From Nitrospirota bacterium (lineage in GTDB: Bacteria > Nitrospirota > JACRHL01), in assembly GCA_016212085.1 (NCBI GenBank), contig JACRHL010000003.1, positions 321,178 to 385,177 of the forward strand: 64,000 nucleotides of DNA, written 5' to 3'. The position numbers and the translations under genes were made by a program. This document shows positions 21,659 to 48,465 of the stretch, in pieces. How positions within the stretch are numbered: the first letter of the stretch is position 1; each line of letters begins with the position of its first letter. The notes beneath the pieces were generated by a model. That model saw only the letters and a program-made list of their open reading frames with translations, did no database searches and was not told the origin of the DNA.

Positions 21659-21801
21659 GGGCACCTCTAAAAACCTGCTACGCGGTTCGATTGCTGCGTT
21701 GGGCGGTGCTCGAACCCTCTCCTATCACCATGATATGTCTCGGGTTCTGTGCTCCGGCCACCTTGCACTCGAACCGCTCGCAACGGTTTTTAGAGGTGCC
21801 C
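21659..21801. mobile_element. 143-bp MITE, family B (intergenic copy upstream of dnaE)
   Basis: TIRs GGGCACCTCTAAAAACC / GGTTTTTAGAGGTGCCC; 4-bp direct duplication TGGT on both sides. Confidence 0.7.
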
Positions 21802-21952
21802 TGGTGCACCCGTCACGGCCACGTTCCGGCCGCCCATCGAACAGGCACGCCACCCGGACGCCGCCCGCGCCGGGTGATCCCCCCGTGGCGACGGACGCCG
21901 CGGCTCGGCTAGAATGGGGGCAACCCGCAACCCGTTGTCACCCCGGACCGCC

Positions 21953-24900
21953 ATGCACCACGCCCCGTTCGTGCACCTTCGCTGTCATACCGAGTACAGC
22001 CTGCTCAAGTGCACCAACCGCATCGATGCGCTGGTGGCCAAGGCGGCGGAATACCGCCTGCCGGCGCTGGCGCTCACCGACATGGGCAACCTGTTCGGGG
22101 CGGTACAGTTCTACCAGACGGCGGTGGCGGCGGGCATCAAGCCGATCCTGGGCGCCCAGGTGAACGTGGCGCCGGACAGCCGCTGCATACGCCCCGGCGG
22201 CGCCCCGGAGGACACCCCGGAGATGCTGCTGCTGTGCCGCGACGCCCGCGGCTGGCGCAACCTGATGGAGCTGCTCTCCGCCGCGCACCTGGAATCCATG
22301 CACGACCACACCCCCCTGGTGGACCGGGAGCTGCTGGAACGGCACGCGGACGGGCTGATCTGCCTCACCGGCGCCCTGAACGGCGTCATCCCGCGCCTGC
22401 TGGAGGGTGGCCACCCCACCGCCGCGCAGGACACCCTGGCCTGGCTCAAGGCCGCCTACGGCGCCGACAACGTGTTCGTGGAGCTGGCCGACAACGGCAT
22501 GGCCGGACGGCGCGGCCTGAACCTAGACCTCATCAACCTGGCGCACGCCACCCACACCCCCCTGGTGGCCACCGCCGACTGCTTCTACCTGACCCCGGAC
22601 GACGCCCGCGCCCACGACGCCCTGCTGTGCATCGGCTCCGGCGCCATGATGGACGAGACCGACCGCCGCCGCCTGCCCGCCGGCCAGTTCCACTTCCGTG
22701 CGCCGGACGAGATGGCCGCCGCCTTCGCCGACCTGCCGGACGCGCTGGAGAACACCGTCCGCATCGCCCAGCGCTGCAACCTGGACCTGCGCTTCGACAC
22801 CCCCTACATGCCCGCCTTCCCGGTCCCCGGCGGCATGCCCCCGGAACGCTACCTGGAGGAACAGGTGTTCGCAGGGCTGGCCCGGCGCTTCACCGAGCAG
22901 GGCATCCCCGAGGAGGCCCGCCCAACCTACACCGAGCGCGCCCGCTGGGAGCTGGACACCATCAACAAGATGGGCTACCCCGGCTACTTCCTGATCGTGT
23001 GGGACATCATCCGCCATGCCCGCGAGCAGGGCATCCCGGTGGGGCCGGGGCGCGGTTCGGCGGCGGGCTCATTGGTGGCCTACGCCCTGCGCATCACCGA
23101 CCTGGACCCGCTCCCCTACAACCTGCTGTTCGAGCGCTTCCTGAACCCGGAGCGCGTGTCGCTGCCCGACATCGACATGGACTTCTGCATGGACCACCGC
23201 GACCGGGTGATCCACTACGTGGCCGACAAGTACGGCAGCGACCACGTGTGCCAGATCATCACCTTCGGCACCATGGGCGCCAAGGCGGTGCTGCGCGACG
23301 TGGCGCGGGTGCTCGACTTCTCGTTCTCCGAGAGCGACCGCATCGCCAAGCTGGTGCCAAACACCCTGGGCATGACCCTGGACAAGGCCATGCAGGAGGA
23401 GCCGCGCCTCAAGGAGCTGGTGCGGTCCGACGCGCGGGTGGGCGAGCTGATGGACATCGCCCTGGCCCTGGAGGGGGTGGCGCGCCACGCCTCCACCCAC
23501 GCCGCCGGCGTGATCATCTCCGAGGACGTGCTGACCCGCTTCACCCCCCTCTACCGCGGCCCCAACAACGAGGTGATCTCCCACTTCGCCAAGGACGACG
23601 CCGAGGCGGCGGGCCTGGTCAAGTTCGACTTCCTGGGCCTCAAGACCCTCACCGTCATCGACCACGCCGTCAAGGAGGTCCGGCGCGCCGGCGGCAACCT
23701 CGACCTGGACGCGGTCACCCACACCGGCATCACCCGGAACGATCCCAAGACCTACGAACTGCTGTGCCGGGGCGACACCACCGGCGTGTTCCAGCTCGAG
23801 TCGTCGGGCATGAAGGACCTGATCGTCAAGATGCAGCCGGGCACCTTCGAGGACCTGGTGGCGCTTTTGGCCCTGTACCGCCCCGGCCCCATCGGCTCGG
23901 GCATGCTGGACGACTTCATCAACCGCAAGAAGGGCACCACGCCCATCACCTACGACCTCCCGGAGCTGGAGCCGATCCTCAAGGAGACCTACGGCGTCAT
24001 CGTCTACCAGGAGCAGGTGATGCGCATCGCCAACGTGGTGGCGGGCTACTCCCTGGGCGATGCCGACCTGCTGCGCCGCGCCATGGGCAAGAAGAAGGCC
24101 TCGGAGATGGAGAAGCAGAAGGCGCGCTTCATCGTCGGCGCCACCGCCAAGGGGCACGACCCCAAGGTGGCGGAGCGCATCTTCGACCTGATGGCCTACT
24201 TCGCGGGGTACGGCTTCAACAAGTCGCACTCCGCGGCCTATGCGGTGGTGTCGTTCCAGACCGCCTACCTGAAGGCCCACCACCCGGTGGAGTTCATGGC
24301 GGCCCTGCTCACCAACGACATGACCAACCCGGACAAGACGGCGAAGAACATCGCCGAGGTGCGGGAGATGAAGATCCCCCTCCTGCCGCCGGACATCAAC
24401 CATAGCGGCATCCGCTTCACCTGCGAGGCGGCGCCGCCGGACAGCCAAAGGTACCCACTGGGGGGCACCTCTATTGACCGTCGCGAGCGGTCCGAGTGCA
24501 AGGCGGACGGAGCGCAGGACCCGAGACATGTCCAGTGGATGGGAGAGGGGCCGAGCACCGCCCAACGCAGCAATCGGGGCGCGCAGCAGGTTGATAGAGG
24601 GCACCTGGGCATCCGCTACGGCCTGGGCGGCATCAAGGGGGTGGGCGAGGCGGCCCTGGAATCCGTCGTCGCCCAGCGTACCCGGGCCCCCTACACGGGC
24701 CTGGCCGACCTGTGCCAGCGCATCGACCTGAACAAGTCCAACAAGCGCGTGCTGGAGGCCCTCATCCACGCGGGCGCCCTGGACGCCTTCGGCCCCCGCG
24801 CCGCCCTGTCCGCCGCCCTGCCCGAGGCCATGGAGGCGGGCTCACGCGGCGCGCGCGAGCGCGAGTCGGGGCAGTTCTCCATCTTCGGCGCCGAGGCGGC

Positions 24901-47523: not shown

Positions 47524-48302
47524 CGTGATGTCCTTCGCGGGTTGGATGCAAGGGTTGAAAGCGGCGCCAGGAGCGGCGCGAAGATGGCCTTGCCGACCTG
47601 GAGCCCCTCGTCGATGGAGAGGCGCACACCCGGCGCGCCCCCTGGTTGAGATTGGCGCCAGGATACGAGGTGCTCGTCGGAGCAGAAGAACGCCAGCGCC
47701 GGGCAGAGGGTGTCGGCGGCACAGCCGCCGGTGTTCCTCGCCCCCGCCCAGACCACGGCGCCCTCGGGCGCCACGGCCTCCAGGGTAGCGCCCCGGTCTC
47801 GGGTGGTGACATGGACGGCCGCGCCGCAAGTGGCGCAGGCCGAGTCGATGGCGGTGTCTGTGCGATACATGGCCCCGGCGCCCAGGGCGTCGATGGCGCA
47901 CATGGCGTTCAGCACCTGGCCGCCCAGCCGTACCCGGTGCCCGGTTTCCCGGTCCCGGAACGGGTAGGCCCCCGTCACGTCGCCGTGTGCGTCCAGCACC
48001 ACCAGGTCGCGCCCTTCCAGTTGCCGCAGCAGGCGGCGTACCTCGTCCAGCGGCAGGTCGGCGGCGAGGTGTTCGACGGAAGGGGCACGGCCCCGATCCG
48101 CATAGCCATCGAGCACGGCCCGCCGCACGCGGTCCTCCGCCTCCCCCATGCCGGTCCAGCACCGTTCGGCGTCGAATGCGGCGAGGATCGCGGCCAGTGC
48201 CCGACGGGCCGCCTCCGAGGTGATTGCCGACCAATCCGGGAAGGTCACGCCGGGTCCGATGGAGATTTCGAGGGGGGTCCGGGTGGGTCGCGGTATGTCC
48301 AT
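47520..48302 (-). CDS. merB: organomercurial lyase
   Basis: Catalytic-region match (NAMCAIDALG with Cys/Asp, later Cys cluster); ~45-aa N-terminal extension; GGAGG RBS before ATG 48302. Confidence 0.7.
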   Translation of the reverse strand: MDIPRPTRTPLEISIGPGVTFPDWSAITSEAARRALAAILAAFDAERCWTGMGEAEDRVRRAVLDGYADRGRAPSVEHLAADLPLDEVRRLLRQLEGRDLVVLDAHGDVTGAYPFRDRETGHRVRLGGQVLNAMCAIDALGAGAMYRTDTAIDSACATCGAAVHVTTRDRGATLEAVAPEGAVVWAGARNTGGCAADTLCPALAFFCSDEHLVSWRQSQPGGAPGVRLSIDEGLQVGKAIFAPLLAPLSTLASNPRRTSR

Positions 48303-48322
48303 GCGCTGGCCCTCCATGCTCA

Positions 48323-48465
48323 GGGCACCTCTATTAACCGTCGCGAGCGCTCCGATTGCAAGGCGGACGGAGCGGAGAACCCGAGACATATCTGGGTGAT
48401 AGGCGAGGGTTCGAGCACCGCCCAACGCAGCAATCGGAGCGCGCAGTAGGTTAATAGAGGTGCCC
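48323..48465. mobile_element. 143-bp MITE, family B (inside mer operon, between merP and merB)
   Basis: TIRs GGGCACCTCTATTAACC / GGTTAATAGAGGTGCCC; 4-bp duplication CTCA on both sides. Confidence 0.75.

Follow-up and report, generated by a model that had tools for sequence, protein, structure and literature searches.

The seven short repeats in a 64-kb stretch of DNA (hereafter, the window) from an uncultured, free-living, high-GC Nitrospirota bacterium, known from a metagenomic assembly (MAG), are very probably a family of MITEs moved by an IS5-family transposase that is encoded outside the window. A single account, in which this mobilization is combined with the hairpin shape of the elements, their effect on the genes they enter, and a conserved internal core, has a similarly high probability. 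The type of element is of a known kind, while the conserved cargo is unusual.

Copies, Termini and Target Duplications

An nhmmer profile search across the 64-kb window recovered seven full-length copies (E 1e-44 to 2e-31), at the same positions as in the initial annotation, and no eighth copy was found, the next best match having an E of 0.16. The 17-mer GGGCACCTCTATTAACC, allowing up to three mismatches, occurs nine times in the window, against 0.07 expected by chance. The copies are 143, 143, 143, 165, 145, 133, and 143 bp long (copies 1 to 7), and none has a consistent open reading frame, with stops in three of the six frames, which is the small, non-coding, multicopy profile of a MITE. 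They are clustered, all seven lying within 27 kb, with none in the remaining 37 kb.

The termini in the window are GGGCACCTCTAWWAACC, and each copy carries two termini of the same type, either IRL/IRL or, in copy 1, IRR/IRR. Copy 7 (48323..48465, + strand, 143 bp), upstream of merB, has perfect 17-bp TIRs and the target duplication CTCA, and is the copy nearest to the consensus. Perfect 17-bp TIRs are also found in copy 5 (39437..39581, +, 145 bp; duplication ACAT), which lies between a Crp-family gene on the minus strand and mgtC on the plus strand. Copy 1 (21659..21801, −, 143 bp), which is intergenic and upstream of dnaE, has TIRs of 16–17 bp, both termini being of the GGGCACCTCTAAAAACC type, and is flanked by a perfect TGGT (21655-21658 and 21802-21805). 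Copy 2 (24463..24605, +, 143 bp) is inside dnaE, between perfect copies of TGGG (24459-24462 and 24606-24609), and its right end is degenerate, the terminal 7 nt being inverted (GGGCACC in place of the consensus GGTGCCC, of which it is the reverse complement).

The other three copies have no flanking duplication. Copy 3 (29135..29277, −, 143 bp) has degenerate termini and is located in the divergent queC-moeA intergenic region, abutting the 5′ end of queC, where N-terminal codons that are present in a relative have been replaced by the element. Copy 4 (34282..34446, +, 165 bp) has a 22-bp internal insertion that begins near 34312; it starts 24 bp past the stop of a CCG-domain gene, and its right end truncates a fragment of an IS3-family orfA (HTH_Tnp_1). 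Copy 6 (44977..45109, −, 133 bp), the most decayed, has degenerate termini and lacks about 7–8 nt of the apical stem-loop, which have been deleted; it is flanked by two minus-strand genes, one of the Crp family and one for a cytochrome c. The placement of copies next to or inside genes, as originally described, is borne out by copies 2 and 3. The shared TIRs of 16–17 bp stand in copies 1, 5, and 7, and not in copies 3 and 6 or at the right end of copy 2, the complementarity of the arms in fact spanning the whole element.

The four clean 4-bp duplications reported initially (TGGT, TGGG, ACAT, and CTCA) proved perfect when the flanks were re-read. By our own calculation, a chance match of 4-nt flanks at 70% GC has a probability of about 0.007 per copy, and four in seven would have a probability of about 1e-7. 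The length of 4 bp is fixed, being found also around full-length insertion sequences and MITEs with these TIRs in other genomes. The pairwise identity of the window copies is only 65–90% and three have lost their duplications, so the insertions are not young, which leaves the earlier description of a recently active element on weak ground. The family and its TIR provide a handle for the annotation of repeats in the Nitrospirota and many other uncultured lineages.

Probable Mobilization by an IS5-Type Transposase

A scan of 185,579 species genomes for the 17-mer returned more than 110 loci, including five with elements of 1290–1298 bp bounded by GGGCACCTCTATTAACC and GGGCACCTCTAAAAAC, which are insertion sequences of approximately 1.3 kb, with an identical 17-bp terminus, in Nitrospira and other genomes. 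Four of these full-length elements have perfect 4-bp duplications (TCAA in L061, TATA in both L079 and L097, and TTAT in L092), while the flanks of the fifth, L041, are TTAA/TTAT. An intact open frame of 356–366 codons is present in four of the five, the transposase frame of L061 being broken. On the NCBIfam model for IS5 family transposases (NF033581), which has a cut-off of 140, the L079 and L041 enzymes both reach 276.8 bits. The closest named relatives of the partner transposase are IS1168/IS1169, at 49% amino acid identity; an IS5 element of Aliarcobacter, with the termini GGGTACCTCTAAAAAC, has 51% identity. The partner thus has the features of the IS5 family, that is, a length of around 1.1–1.4 kb, TIRs of some 16 bp, a 4-bp duplication, and a match to a DDE transposase model.

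In other phyla, dozens of short elements (49–427 bp) have the same termini and 4-bp duplications, with unrelated interiors, which indicates that this type of transposase mobilizes MITEs repeatedly. No IS5-family transposase of the partner type was found in the 64-kb window (tblastn), in agreement with the initial placement of the autonomous partner outside it.

The comparison of insertion sites also favors transposition. The locus L236 of a relative is syntenic with the window from 17 to 34 kb, and copies 1–4 are all missing there. The empty site in dnaE is exact and intact, the relative reading ...CGGC TGGC CATCCGC where the window reads ...CCAC TGGG, the MITE, and then TGGG CATCCGC; for the intergenic sites of copies 1 and 4, no base-by-base alignment to the relative was obtained. 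The initial reading of a MITE mobilized in trans is thus upheld by the TIRs, the target duplications, the IS5-type partners in other genomes, and these empty sites.

The transposase acting on the 143-bp element would be a DDE enzyme of the IS5 group, in the clade of IS1168/IS1169 of Bacteroides, encoded by an insertion sequence of about 1.3 kb outside the window, as suggested by the identical 17-bp termini and the equal length of the duplications. It would recognize the 16–17-bp termini, GGGCACCTCTA(TT/AA)AAC(C), and move the element by cut-and-paste, with a 4-bp staggered cleavage of the target giving rise to the 4-bp duplications. This chemistry is presumed by analogy with the IS5 family, whereas the termini, duplications, empty sites, and partner elements were observed directly.

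Like the IS5 family (IS5 group; IS1168/IS1169 of Bacteroides fragilis), then, the window elements have TIRs of 16–17 bp and 4-bp target duplications, and autonomous elements of about 1.3 kb with the identical terminus encode a transposase matching NF033581. In contrast with these insertion sequences, they are non-coding and 143 bp long, have an interior that bears no relation to either end of the full-length elements, and carry two termini of the same type, where the insertion sequence has one of each. The terminus of IS1169 itself is divergent, being GAACTCCTCTAAAAT-like.

Insertion in Frame into dnaE and Other Genes

Copy 2 lies within an intact ORF of 1221 codons, dnaE (DNA polymerase III alpha; 21914..25579, +). 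An insertion of this element can leave the reading frame of a gene intact because the element has three open frames out of six and, together with its duplication, measures 143 + 4 = 147 bp; in dnaE, this unit corresponds to 49 in-frame codons (24461-24607). The 49 amino acids are placed in a variable loop ahead of the HhH motif, and the match to the HHH_6 domain is stretched, with 141 amino acids across 84 profile positions. None of the DnaE orthologues examined (P0002–P0011) has the 49 amino acids, and the protein cluster of the insert-bearing DnaE has a single member. Copy 2 lengthens by 49 residues a surface loop of DnaE that varies naturally, and copy 3 takes the place of the 5′ end of queC. 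The insert-bearing polymerase is presumably functional, judging from its intact ORF.

In-frame relatives of copy 2 occur elsewhere, in lipB (L179) and ybeY (P0256). An exhaustive protein search with the 49-residue insert returned 22 clusters, the majority of which are short ORFs resembling spurious calls over copies of the MITE; among the five clusters that were scanned, one is a real insertion in ybeY. The family explains odd "insertions" in the conserved proteins DnaE, LipB, and YbeY, and the 49-residue loop of transposon origin in an essential replicative polymerase represents a clean case of selfish DNA tolerated within a core gene by a free-living bacterium.

The Hairpin and Its Conserved Core

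As a quasi-palindrome, the 143-bp element folds over its whole length into one rod-like hairpin, with complementarity that continues beyond the outer 16–17 bp. The minimum free energy of copy 7 is −85.6 kcal/mol on the plus strand and −86.5 kcal/mol on the minus strand (z = −10.2). In an alignment of 50 sequences, 89.6% of the cells are paired, against 35–42% when the partner is slid, and 30 pairs have double changes, values that none of 500 shuffles attained, the structure used here being a projection of single-sequence folds, given that the RNAalifold consensus failed to recover the inner rod. The arms of this long rod co-vary, although the covariation could be a product of hairpin-templated mutation, through template switching in quasi-palindromes, and not of selection.

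Within the rod, a core of about 79 nt was delimited in copy 7 (48356..48434, +) by a covariance model and alignments; it opens with TGCAAGGCGGACGGAGCGGAG and closes with CGAGCACCGCCCAACGCAGCA, with CCCGAGACATATC, the apical loop, and GATAGGCGAGGG between them in that order. The corresponding cores are at 21690-21768 (−), 24496-24574 (+), and 29166-29244 (−) in copies 1–3, and at 34338-34415 (+), 39470-39550 (+), and 45005-45076 (−) in copies 4–6. This core (~75 nt) is common to MITEs with unrelated IS5-like termini in the Geobacteraceae, on a Nitrosomonas plasmid (the sole match of the plasmid search), and in many metagenomes, which gives a host range of at least three phyla, that is, Nitrospirota, Desulfobacterota (Geobacteraceae), and Pseudomonadota (the plasmid); a partial variant is present in a Chlorobium MAG. 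The core pattern had two matches in viral contigs, both by chance and without a profile match, and none in phage records.

The identity between TIR classes is 0.30 in the outer TIR, 0.60 in P1 (the outer stem between the TIR and the core), 0.86 in the core, and 0.24 in the apical loop, the value for the core being inflated by the retrieval of the metagenome copies through a pattern within the core itself; it is 0.81 once the positions forced by the search pattern are dropped. A comparison of core identity between copies with intact and decayed termini was rejected as evidence, given that the metagenome copies had been ascertained through the core. The initial annotation had not noted that the insertion in dnaE is in frame, that the hairpin spans the whole element, or that the interior is conserved outside the TIR class of the window copies.

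The core, far better conserved than the termini and common to MITEs with other IS5-like ends, may be a module, either cis-acting or a passenger, that selection has retained, acting either through the element, for instance by way of folding or the binding of host factors for mobilization or persistence, or through the host. A tentative proposal, to which we give well under an even chance, is that the core (AAGGCGSACGGAGCGSAG-stem-CCCGAGACATATC-loop-GATAGGCGAGGG-stem-CGAGCACCGCSCAACGCAGC) represents a structured module not described before, of RNA or single-stranded DNA, under selection. The same reading, equally tentative, takes the core as a functional cargo present in at least five or six IS5-like terminal classes, for which the TIRs are interchangeable vehicles. 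If the core is under selection, it would be a conserved structured module spread across phyla by interchangeable transposon ends, and would provide both a candidate for a new non-coding element and a model, open to testing, of how MITEs gain and retain cargo.

The strongest alternative, which falls only somewhat short of an even chance, is that the core has no function, and is the interior of one successful MITE that spread horizontally and repeatedly acquired new IS5-type ends by recombination or template switching at the common AAAAAC segment. The inner AAAAAC(C/G) is common to all TIR classes, and many share the adjacent GCGAG/CGCAG loop, which together provide microhomology for the swapping of ends. 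Several copies that lack TIRs have a perfect P1 and core with abruptly unrelated outer ends, which fits truncation rather than slow decay. A similar probability attaches to the reading of the apparent conservation as a product of youth and of the way in which the copies were found, given that the core pattern retrieved the metagenome copies, and that many copies of the commonest class, with CAGGCTGTTGAAAAAC termini (the CAGG class), are nearly identical. However, the apical loop is saturated (35% identity within classes and 24% between them) while the adjacent core positions outside the pattern retain 81–87%, and among the window copies, whose detection did not depend on the core pattern, differences amount to 10–35% overall, yet CCCGAGACAT and GCACCGC are invariant.

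A rather doubtful alternative is that the core is a functional structured RNA, either a small RNA or a cis-regulatory one, which the MITEs merely spread, the copies persisting through the use of the transcript by the host or the element. The core, including its internal loops, is 81–86% conserved between TIR classes, whereas identity is no better than random in the apical loop of 5 nt (24%) and in the outer TIR (30%). On one strand, G:U pairs outnumber A:C in the interior (42 versus 20 in P1, and 28 versus 9 in the core), but not in the TIRs (28 versus 32); the excess is modest, however, and the sequences are not independent. The core is retained in copies 3 and 6 despite their decayed termini, and its outer part is kept in the Chlorobium MAG, where the apical domain is different. 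Ascertainment through the core pushes the conservation upward.

Other observations run against such an RNA. The orientation of the elements is unbiased relative to the flanking genes (upstream, 27 in the same orientation and 20 opposite; downstream, 22 and 29), in counts that rest on a crude GC3-based gene call, and no promoter or terminator consensus was found in copies 1–5 (scan of 21000-40000). Rfam returned no match in the window at the gathering score, nor any to the element in five core-bearing loci with the threshold relaxed to E 10. Separately, the window contains no genes for tRNA or tmRNA. A literature search for the exact core sequence recovered only a chance 12-mer in an unrelated insect paper, and the sequence is absent from the supplements of two Geobacter genome papers that catalogue multicopy sequences.

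Movement of single-stranded hairpins by a Y1 (HUH) transposase, as in REP/BIME-like or IS200/IS605-type elements, would accord with the stable hairpin over the whole element and a conserved motif that includes GTAG (CGCAGTAG), close to one end of P1, but is most improbable in view of the TIRs, the duplications of exactly 4 bp, the precise empty site in dnaE, and termini identical to those of an IS5-family element that encodes a DDE transposase, and no RAYT or TnpA(Y1) gene was found among the window ORFs scanned against Pfam, which cover part of the window. To our knowledge, Y1 elements have neither target duplications nor TIRs. Misassembly, through the collapse or misjoining of repeats, is a similarly slight prospect for the dnaE copy or the clustering of the copies, for while the sequence comes from a MAG, misassembly is well known at repeats, and the insert-bearing protein is alone in its cluster, the dnaE insertion has a perfect duplication, keeps the frame of 1221 codons, and sits at the precise point where the sequence of the relative runs on unbroken; synteny with the relative is uninterrupted across copies 1–4, and independent in-frame copies of related elements occur in lipB and ybeY in other samples.

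Comparison with Other Palindromic Repeats

The ERIC/IRU elements of enterobacteria and the Correia elements of neisseriae are MITE-like imperfect palindromes; they are small, form hairpins, carry TIRs, and lie mostly between genes and at times within them, with a cross-species conservation above that predicted by neutral decay (PMC3184786). The window family is similar in being composed of small, mostly intergenic, hairpin-forming TIR repeats, but differs in its sequences, target duplications, and hosts, and in a conserved interior that is paired with several unrelated TIR classes in different phyla. The target duplication of the Correia elements is TA.

Chunjie, a MITE of Geobacter uraniireducens, is A+T-rich and 178–235 bp long, with 21-bp TIRs and 9-bp direct repeats (PMC3184786). 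It shares with the window family a stable hairpin, and the Geobacteraceae lineage also carries the core, although the identity of the two elements was rejected, given the differences in size, composition, and the 9-bp repeat.

A functional parallel is found in the Rickettsia palindromic elements (RPEs), for which Ogata et al. (2000) is reportedly the source study. According to PMC10969869 and PMC3184786, these are palindromic elements of about 150 bp, inserted in frame in housekeeping genes with the ORF kept, nearly half of the copies being intragenic. The window family is also a palindrome of about 150 bp that adds a peptide segment in frame (in dnaE, and in lipB and ybeY at related loci), although only one of its seven copies is intragenic, against nearly half of the RPEs, and its host is a free-living, high-GC Nitrospirota bacterium, rather than a reduced intracellular genome. 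The window family also has clear TIRs, target duplications, and an identifiable IS partner, whereas the RPEs are not known to have any of these. RPE identity was not assigned, the likeness being functional only and the RPEs having been compared by description. The window family indicates that, outside Rickettsia too, proteins can gain peptide segments from MITEs.

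Copies of the Element in the Window

Seven related elements (c1–c7) were read in the window at the intervals proposed by the initial annotation, 21659–21801 (−), 24463–24605 (+), 29135–29277 (−), 34282–34446 (+), 39437–39581 (+), 44977–45109 (−), and 48323–48465 (+), with respective lengths of 143, 143, 143, 165, 145, 133, and 143 bp. The alignment of these copies (A1) spans the whole length of all seven, and their pairwise identity ranges from 65% to 90%. The terminus GGGCACCTCTATTAACC, with three mismatches or fewer, is found at nine sites in the window, which has a G+C content of 70%, against 0.07 expected. 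A profile built from the seven copies recovers the same seven and no others in the 64 kb (E = 1e-44 to 2e-31), and the search for an eighth copy across the window returned a next best match of E = 0.16. The copies are confined to 21.6–48.5 kb, with none in the remaining 37 kb.

The four clean 4-bp target duplications (TSDs) reported in the same annotation proved to be perfect on re-reading, being TGGT in c1, TGGG in c2, ACAT in c5, and CTCA in c7. The probability of a chance 4-nt flank match is approximately 0.007 at the base composition of the window, and that of four matches in seven copies is approximately 1e-7, by our own arithmetic. No TSD was found on re-reading the flanks of c3, c4, and c6; the termini of c3 and c6 are eroded, and c4 has a 22-bp insertion inside the element. 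By every criterion that can be tested, the seven elements are MITEs.

Where the consensus terminus has GGTGCCC, the final 7 nt of c2 (24599–24605) are its reverse complement, GGGCACC, which looks like a small inversion or a template switch at the hairpin end. This terminal inversion has no effect on the dnaE frame.

The Probable Mobilizing Element

The exact 17-mer of the terminus was scanned in one genome per species, covering 185,579 species and 596 Gb, and more than 110 loci carry it; among the matches listed, the hosts include Saprospiraceae, Holosporales, Nitrospira, Opitutales, Alphaproteobacteria, Chlorobium, and others. Despite the roughly 70 matches expected by chance in 596 Gb (own arithmetic), those observed are concentrated in few genomes and arranged as inverted pairs. 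Five pairs among the matches listed are 1290–1298 bp apart (L041, L061, L079, L092, and L097), and three of the five are in Nitrospira MAGs. These elements have GGGCACCTCTATTAACC at one end and GGGCACCTCTAAAAAC at the other, with perfect 4-bp TSDs in L061 (TCAA), L079 (TATA), L092 (TTAT), and L097 (TATA), while L041 is flanked by TTAA/TTAT. A single intact frame of 356–366 codons is present in four of the five, the frame being broken in L061. The transposase of this ~1.3-kb IS scores 277 bits on the NCBIfam model NF033581, “IS5 family transposase” (cut-off 140), and is 49% identical to the IS1168/IS1169 family transposases of Bacteroides and 51% identical to that of an Aliarcobacter IS5, which has termini GGGTACCTCTAAAAAC and the duplication ATAT. 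By the criteria of the family, the partner is an IS5-family element (IS5 group).

Dozens of short elements (49–427 bp) with the same termini and 4-bp duplications are also found among the matches listed, and their interiors are unrelated to one another and lineage-specific. In the window itself, a tblastn search for an IS5-type transposase found no similar gene (best E = 0.67). Given this, and the full-length IS5-family elements with the same ends in other genomes, the initial annotation was right to see a MITE with an autonomous partner outside the window.

In a Holosporales MAG, a 1274-bp unit (L072, 4925–6198) has the IS5-type termini GGGCACCTCTATTAACC, a TAAT duplication, and a transposase which, by eye from the sequence, we take to be IS630-like (DDE_3-type). 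As the ends of the unit match those of the local 146-bp MITE, it appears to be a nested element, formed by insertion of an IS630-family element into a MITE.

Insertions In and Beside Genes

Gene context was assigned by GC3-based ORF selection and Pfam. Copy c1 lies upstream of dnaE, c2 within dnaE, c3 in the divergent queC–moeA spacer, where it touches the start of queC, and c4 24 bp past the stop of a CCG-domain gene, flush against a truncated orfA fragment of the IS3 family. Copies c5 and c6 each have a Crp-family gene on one side, with mgtC on the other side of c5 and a cytochrome c gene on that of c6, and c7 is upstream of merB.

The nearest relatives of the DnaE protein are 67–77% identical, and include proteins named as Nitrospirota or Leptospirillia. 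The locus that encodes the 77%-identical DnaE (L236, GCA_054014815.1) is syntenic with 17–34.2 kb of the window, sharing the order IMPDH, radical SAM, dnaE, accA, DUF4911, queC, moeA, the sdh genes, and the CCG-domain gene, and no copy of the 143-bp element was found in it. The dnaE site of L236 reads ...AAATACCGGC-TGGC-CATCCGCTAC, and that of the window reads ...GGTACCCAC-TGGG-(143 bp)-TGGG-CATCCGCTAC. Copy c2 is a precise insertion into dnaE, with duplication of the 4-bp target. At queC, the N-terminal codons of L236 (MTHQNNRAGRR) are replaced in the window by the end of c3, with the conserved AVVLVSGG directly after it, which places the queC start codon within or beside c3. Base-level empty sites of c1 and c4 were also sought in L236, where the spacers are too diverged.

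The dnaE ORF (21914–25579) is uninterrupted across c2, which, together with its duplication, contributes 147 bp, or 49 codons. These 49 residues are absent from the orthologues P0002–P0011 and from more distant ones. At the insertion site, between PPDIN and IRYGLGGIKGVGE, lies a loop whose length varies naturally; Pfam HHH_6 covers 141 residues over 84 profile positions in the window DnaE, and the segment at residues 819–831 of Escherichia coli Pol III alpha (5FKU) is represented by 68 residues. The intact frame suggests that the insert-bearing DnaE would be active. Three of the six frames contain no stop in the canonical copies, so that frame-preserving insertions are not rare for this element. 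In a metagenome locus (L179, 1010–1152), a core-bearing copy bounded by GTAAACCACGAAAAATC interrupts lipB in frame within its LplA-B catalytic domain, which remains recognisable across the insert. The endoribonuclease YbeY (P0256) bears the MITE peptide, read in the frame used in DnaE and inserted after residue ~39. The MITEs in lipB and ybeY belong to other TIR classes and to unrelated metagenome organisms. Rickettsia palindromic elements and intragenic ERIC and QMITE copies form similar in-frame gene insertions (PMC10969869, PMC3184786), a likeness that implies no homology. The 143-bp family is new in its sequence and host, and is of a kind already known.

The orfA fragment (HTH_Tnp_1, E = 9e-15; 34446–34628 (−)) terminates precisely at the right end of c4. 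The absence of the rest of the IS3-family IS and of a TSD at c4 suggests a deletion beside this copy. A sigma-70-like site, identified purely as a consensus match (TTGACG-17-CAAAAT, 29302–29330 (−)), lies just upstream of c3 on the queC strand, and transcription from this predicted site would pass through c3 into queC.

Hairpin Structure and Covariation of the Arms

Copy c7 folds as a single long hairpin on either strand (−85.6 and −86.5 kcal/mol; z = −10.2). In the window alignment (A1), the arms covary, with GGTTC/GAACC in c1, GCTCC/GGAGC in c7, and GCCCC/GGGGC in c3 and c5, and, nearer the tip, AACCC/GGGTT versus GCCCC/GGGGC. The termini agree with this pattern, as both ends of each copy are of one type, TAAAAACC in c1 and TATTAACC in the others, while the two ends of the full-length IS differ, one being of the TATTAACC type and the other of the TAAAAAC type. 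In a 50-sequence alignment, 89.6% of the cells of the rod structure are paired, versus 35–42% with slid partners; 30 pairs have changed on both sides, and none of 500 shuffles attains the observed values. The intrastrand complementarity of the element is maintained. The covariation is compatible with either selection or hairpin-templated mutation, which the 50-sequence test does not separate.

A Conserved Core with Interchangeable Termini

The feature worth pursuing is a conserved interior joined to interchangeable IS5-type termini. The interior pattern CCCGAGACATNTC...GCACCGC was used to find metagenome copies of the core, a segment of ~75 nt, and at least 64 loci were confirmed by a profile search. 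The TIR classes include GGGCACCTCTAWWAAC, CAGGCTGTTGAAAAAC, GGGAACCACGAAAAAC, GGAAACGCTGATTAAT, and others. Among the matches listed, only three loci (L114, L187, and L168, all of 70–74% GC) have GGGCACC-type termini, and most have CAGGCTGTTGAAAAACG...CGTTTTTCAACAGCCTG termini with CTAG, CTAA, or TTAA duplications; others have GGGAACCACGAAAAACC, GAGGCTGTGAAAAAACC, GAACACTTTCAGAAATTC, or GGAATA(C/T)CTGAATAAGTG, and some have no recognisable TIR. Identity between TIR classes (within a class in parentheses) is 0.30 (0.75) in the outer TIR, 0.60 (0.88) in the inner TIR, 0.60 (0.84) in the P1 stem between TIR and core, and 0.24 (0.35) in the 5-nt apical loop, and reaches 0.86 (0.91) in the core, or 0.81 (0.87) without the 20 positions forced by the search pattern.

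The hosts of the core include the Nitrospirota MAG of the window, a Geobacteraceae contig with a GyrA 85% identical to that of Geobacter, and a conjugative plasmid of Nitrosomonas sp. sh817 (TIR GGAAACGCTGATTAATT). With a covariance model of this core segment (R1), the hits are the seven window copies and, in a Chlorobium MAG, a partial variant that retains the outer core (AAGGCGGACGGAGCGGAG ... CGAGCACC) and has a different apical domain. The core matched no Rfam family, had no carrier in phage records or viral contigs, and was absent from the searchable supplements of two papers on Geobacter genomes in which multicopy sequences are catalogued; a search of the accessible literature recovered only a chance 12-mer in an unrelated insect paper. 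The identification of the core-bearing element as Chunjie was rejected.

Two readings of this conservation may be weighed. It is possible, if short of probable, that a successful interior exchanges its ends at the common AAAAAC segment. A constrained functional module, kept by selection, is the more doubtful of the two, even though the conserved internal loops adjoin a saturated apical loop, the core persists in the old copies c3 and c6, and G:U exceeds A:C on one strand of the interior (70 versus 29), with no such excess in the TIRs (28 versus 32). Points that are neutral or tell against constraint are that the core itself served to retrieve the metagenome copies, the sequences are phylogenetically non-independent, orientation to the flanking genes is approximately random, no promoter or terminator consensus was found in the copies within 21000–40000, and several “TIR-less” copies seem truncated rather than decayed. 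On balance, a functional core is less likely than not.

Neighbouring Sequences

Upstream of dnaE, a 27-codon ORF (MNRHMLKSGLALPAFYAAVGALITFLA, 21508–21591 (+)), of which the position and part of the sequence are kept in L236, may encode a small membrane peptide. Three tandem repeats of ~30 bp (TCCGCCGGCAGCCTGCCGGACAATTCCCTG-like, 26651–26750) border a stretch of lower GC at 26–28 kb (61.5% GC), which contains an FRG-domain gene; blastn to L236 gives no match at ~26.9–28.5 kb. A SAM-dependent methyltransferase is split by an in-frame TAG (35197–35199) into contiguous ORFs of the same frame (34825–35199 and 35200–35922), with positions 3–47 and 47–144 of Pfam Methyltransf_31 on opposite sides. 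The split may indicate a pseudogene or read-through, or stem from an error in sequencing.

The window also contains a second MITE family (Family A), at 18171–18331, 21221–21350, and 49990–50167 (reverse), with a fragment at 38594–38640; the copy at 21221–21350 has a partial second left end at 21348–21389. The termini are CAGRCTGTTGAAAAAG...GTTTT(T/A)AAC(C/A)RCCTG, with CTAG duplications. The TIR class of this family is that of most core-bearing metagenome MITEs, and its interior is different.
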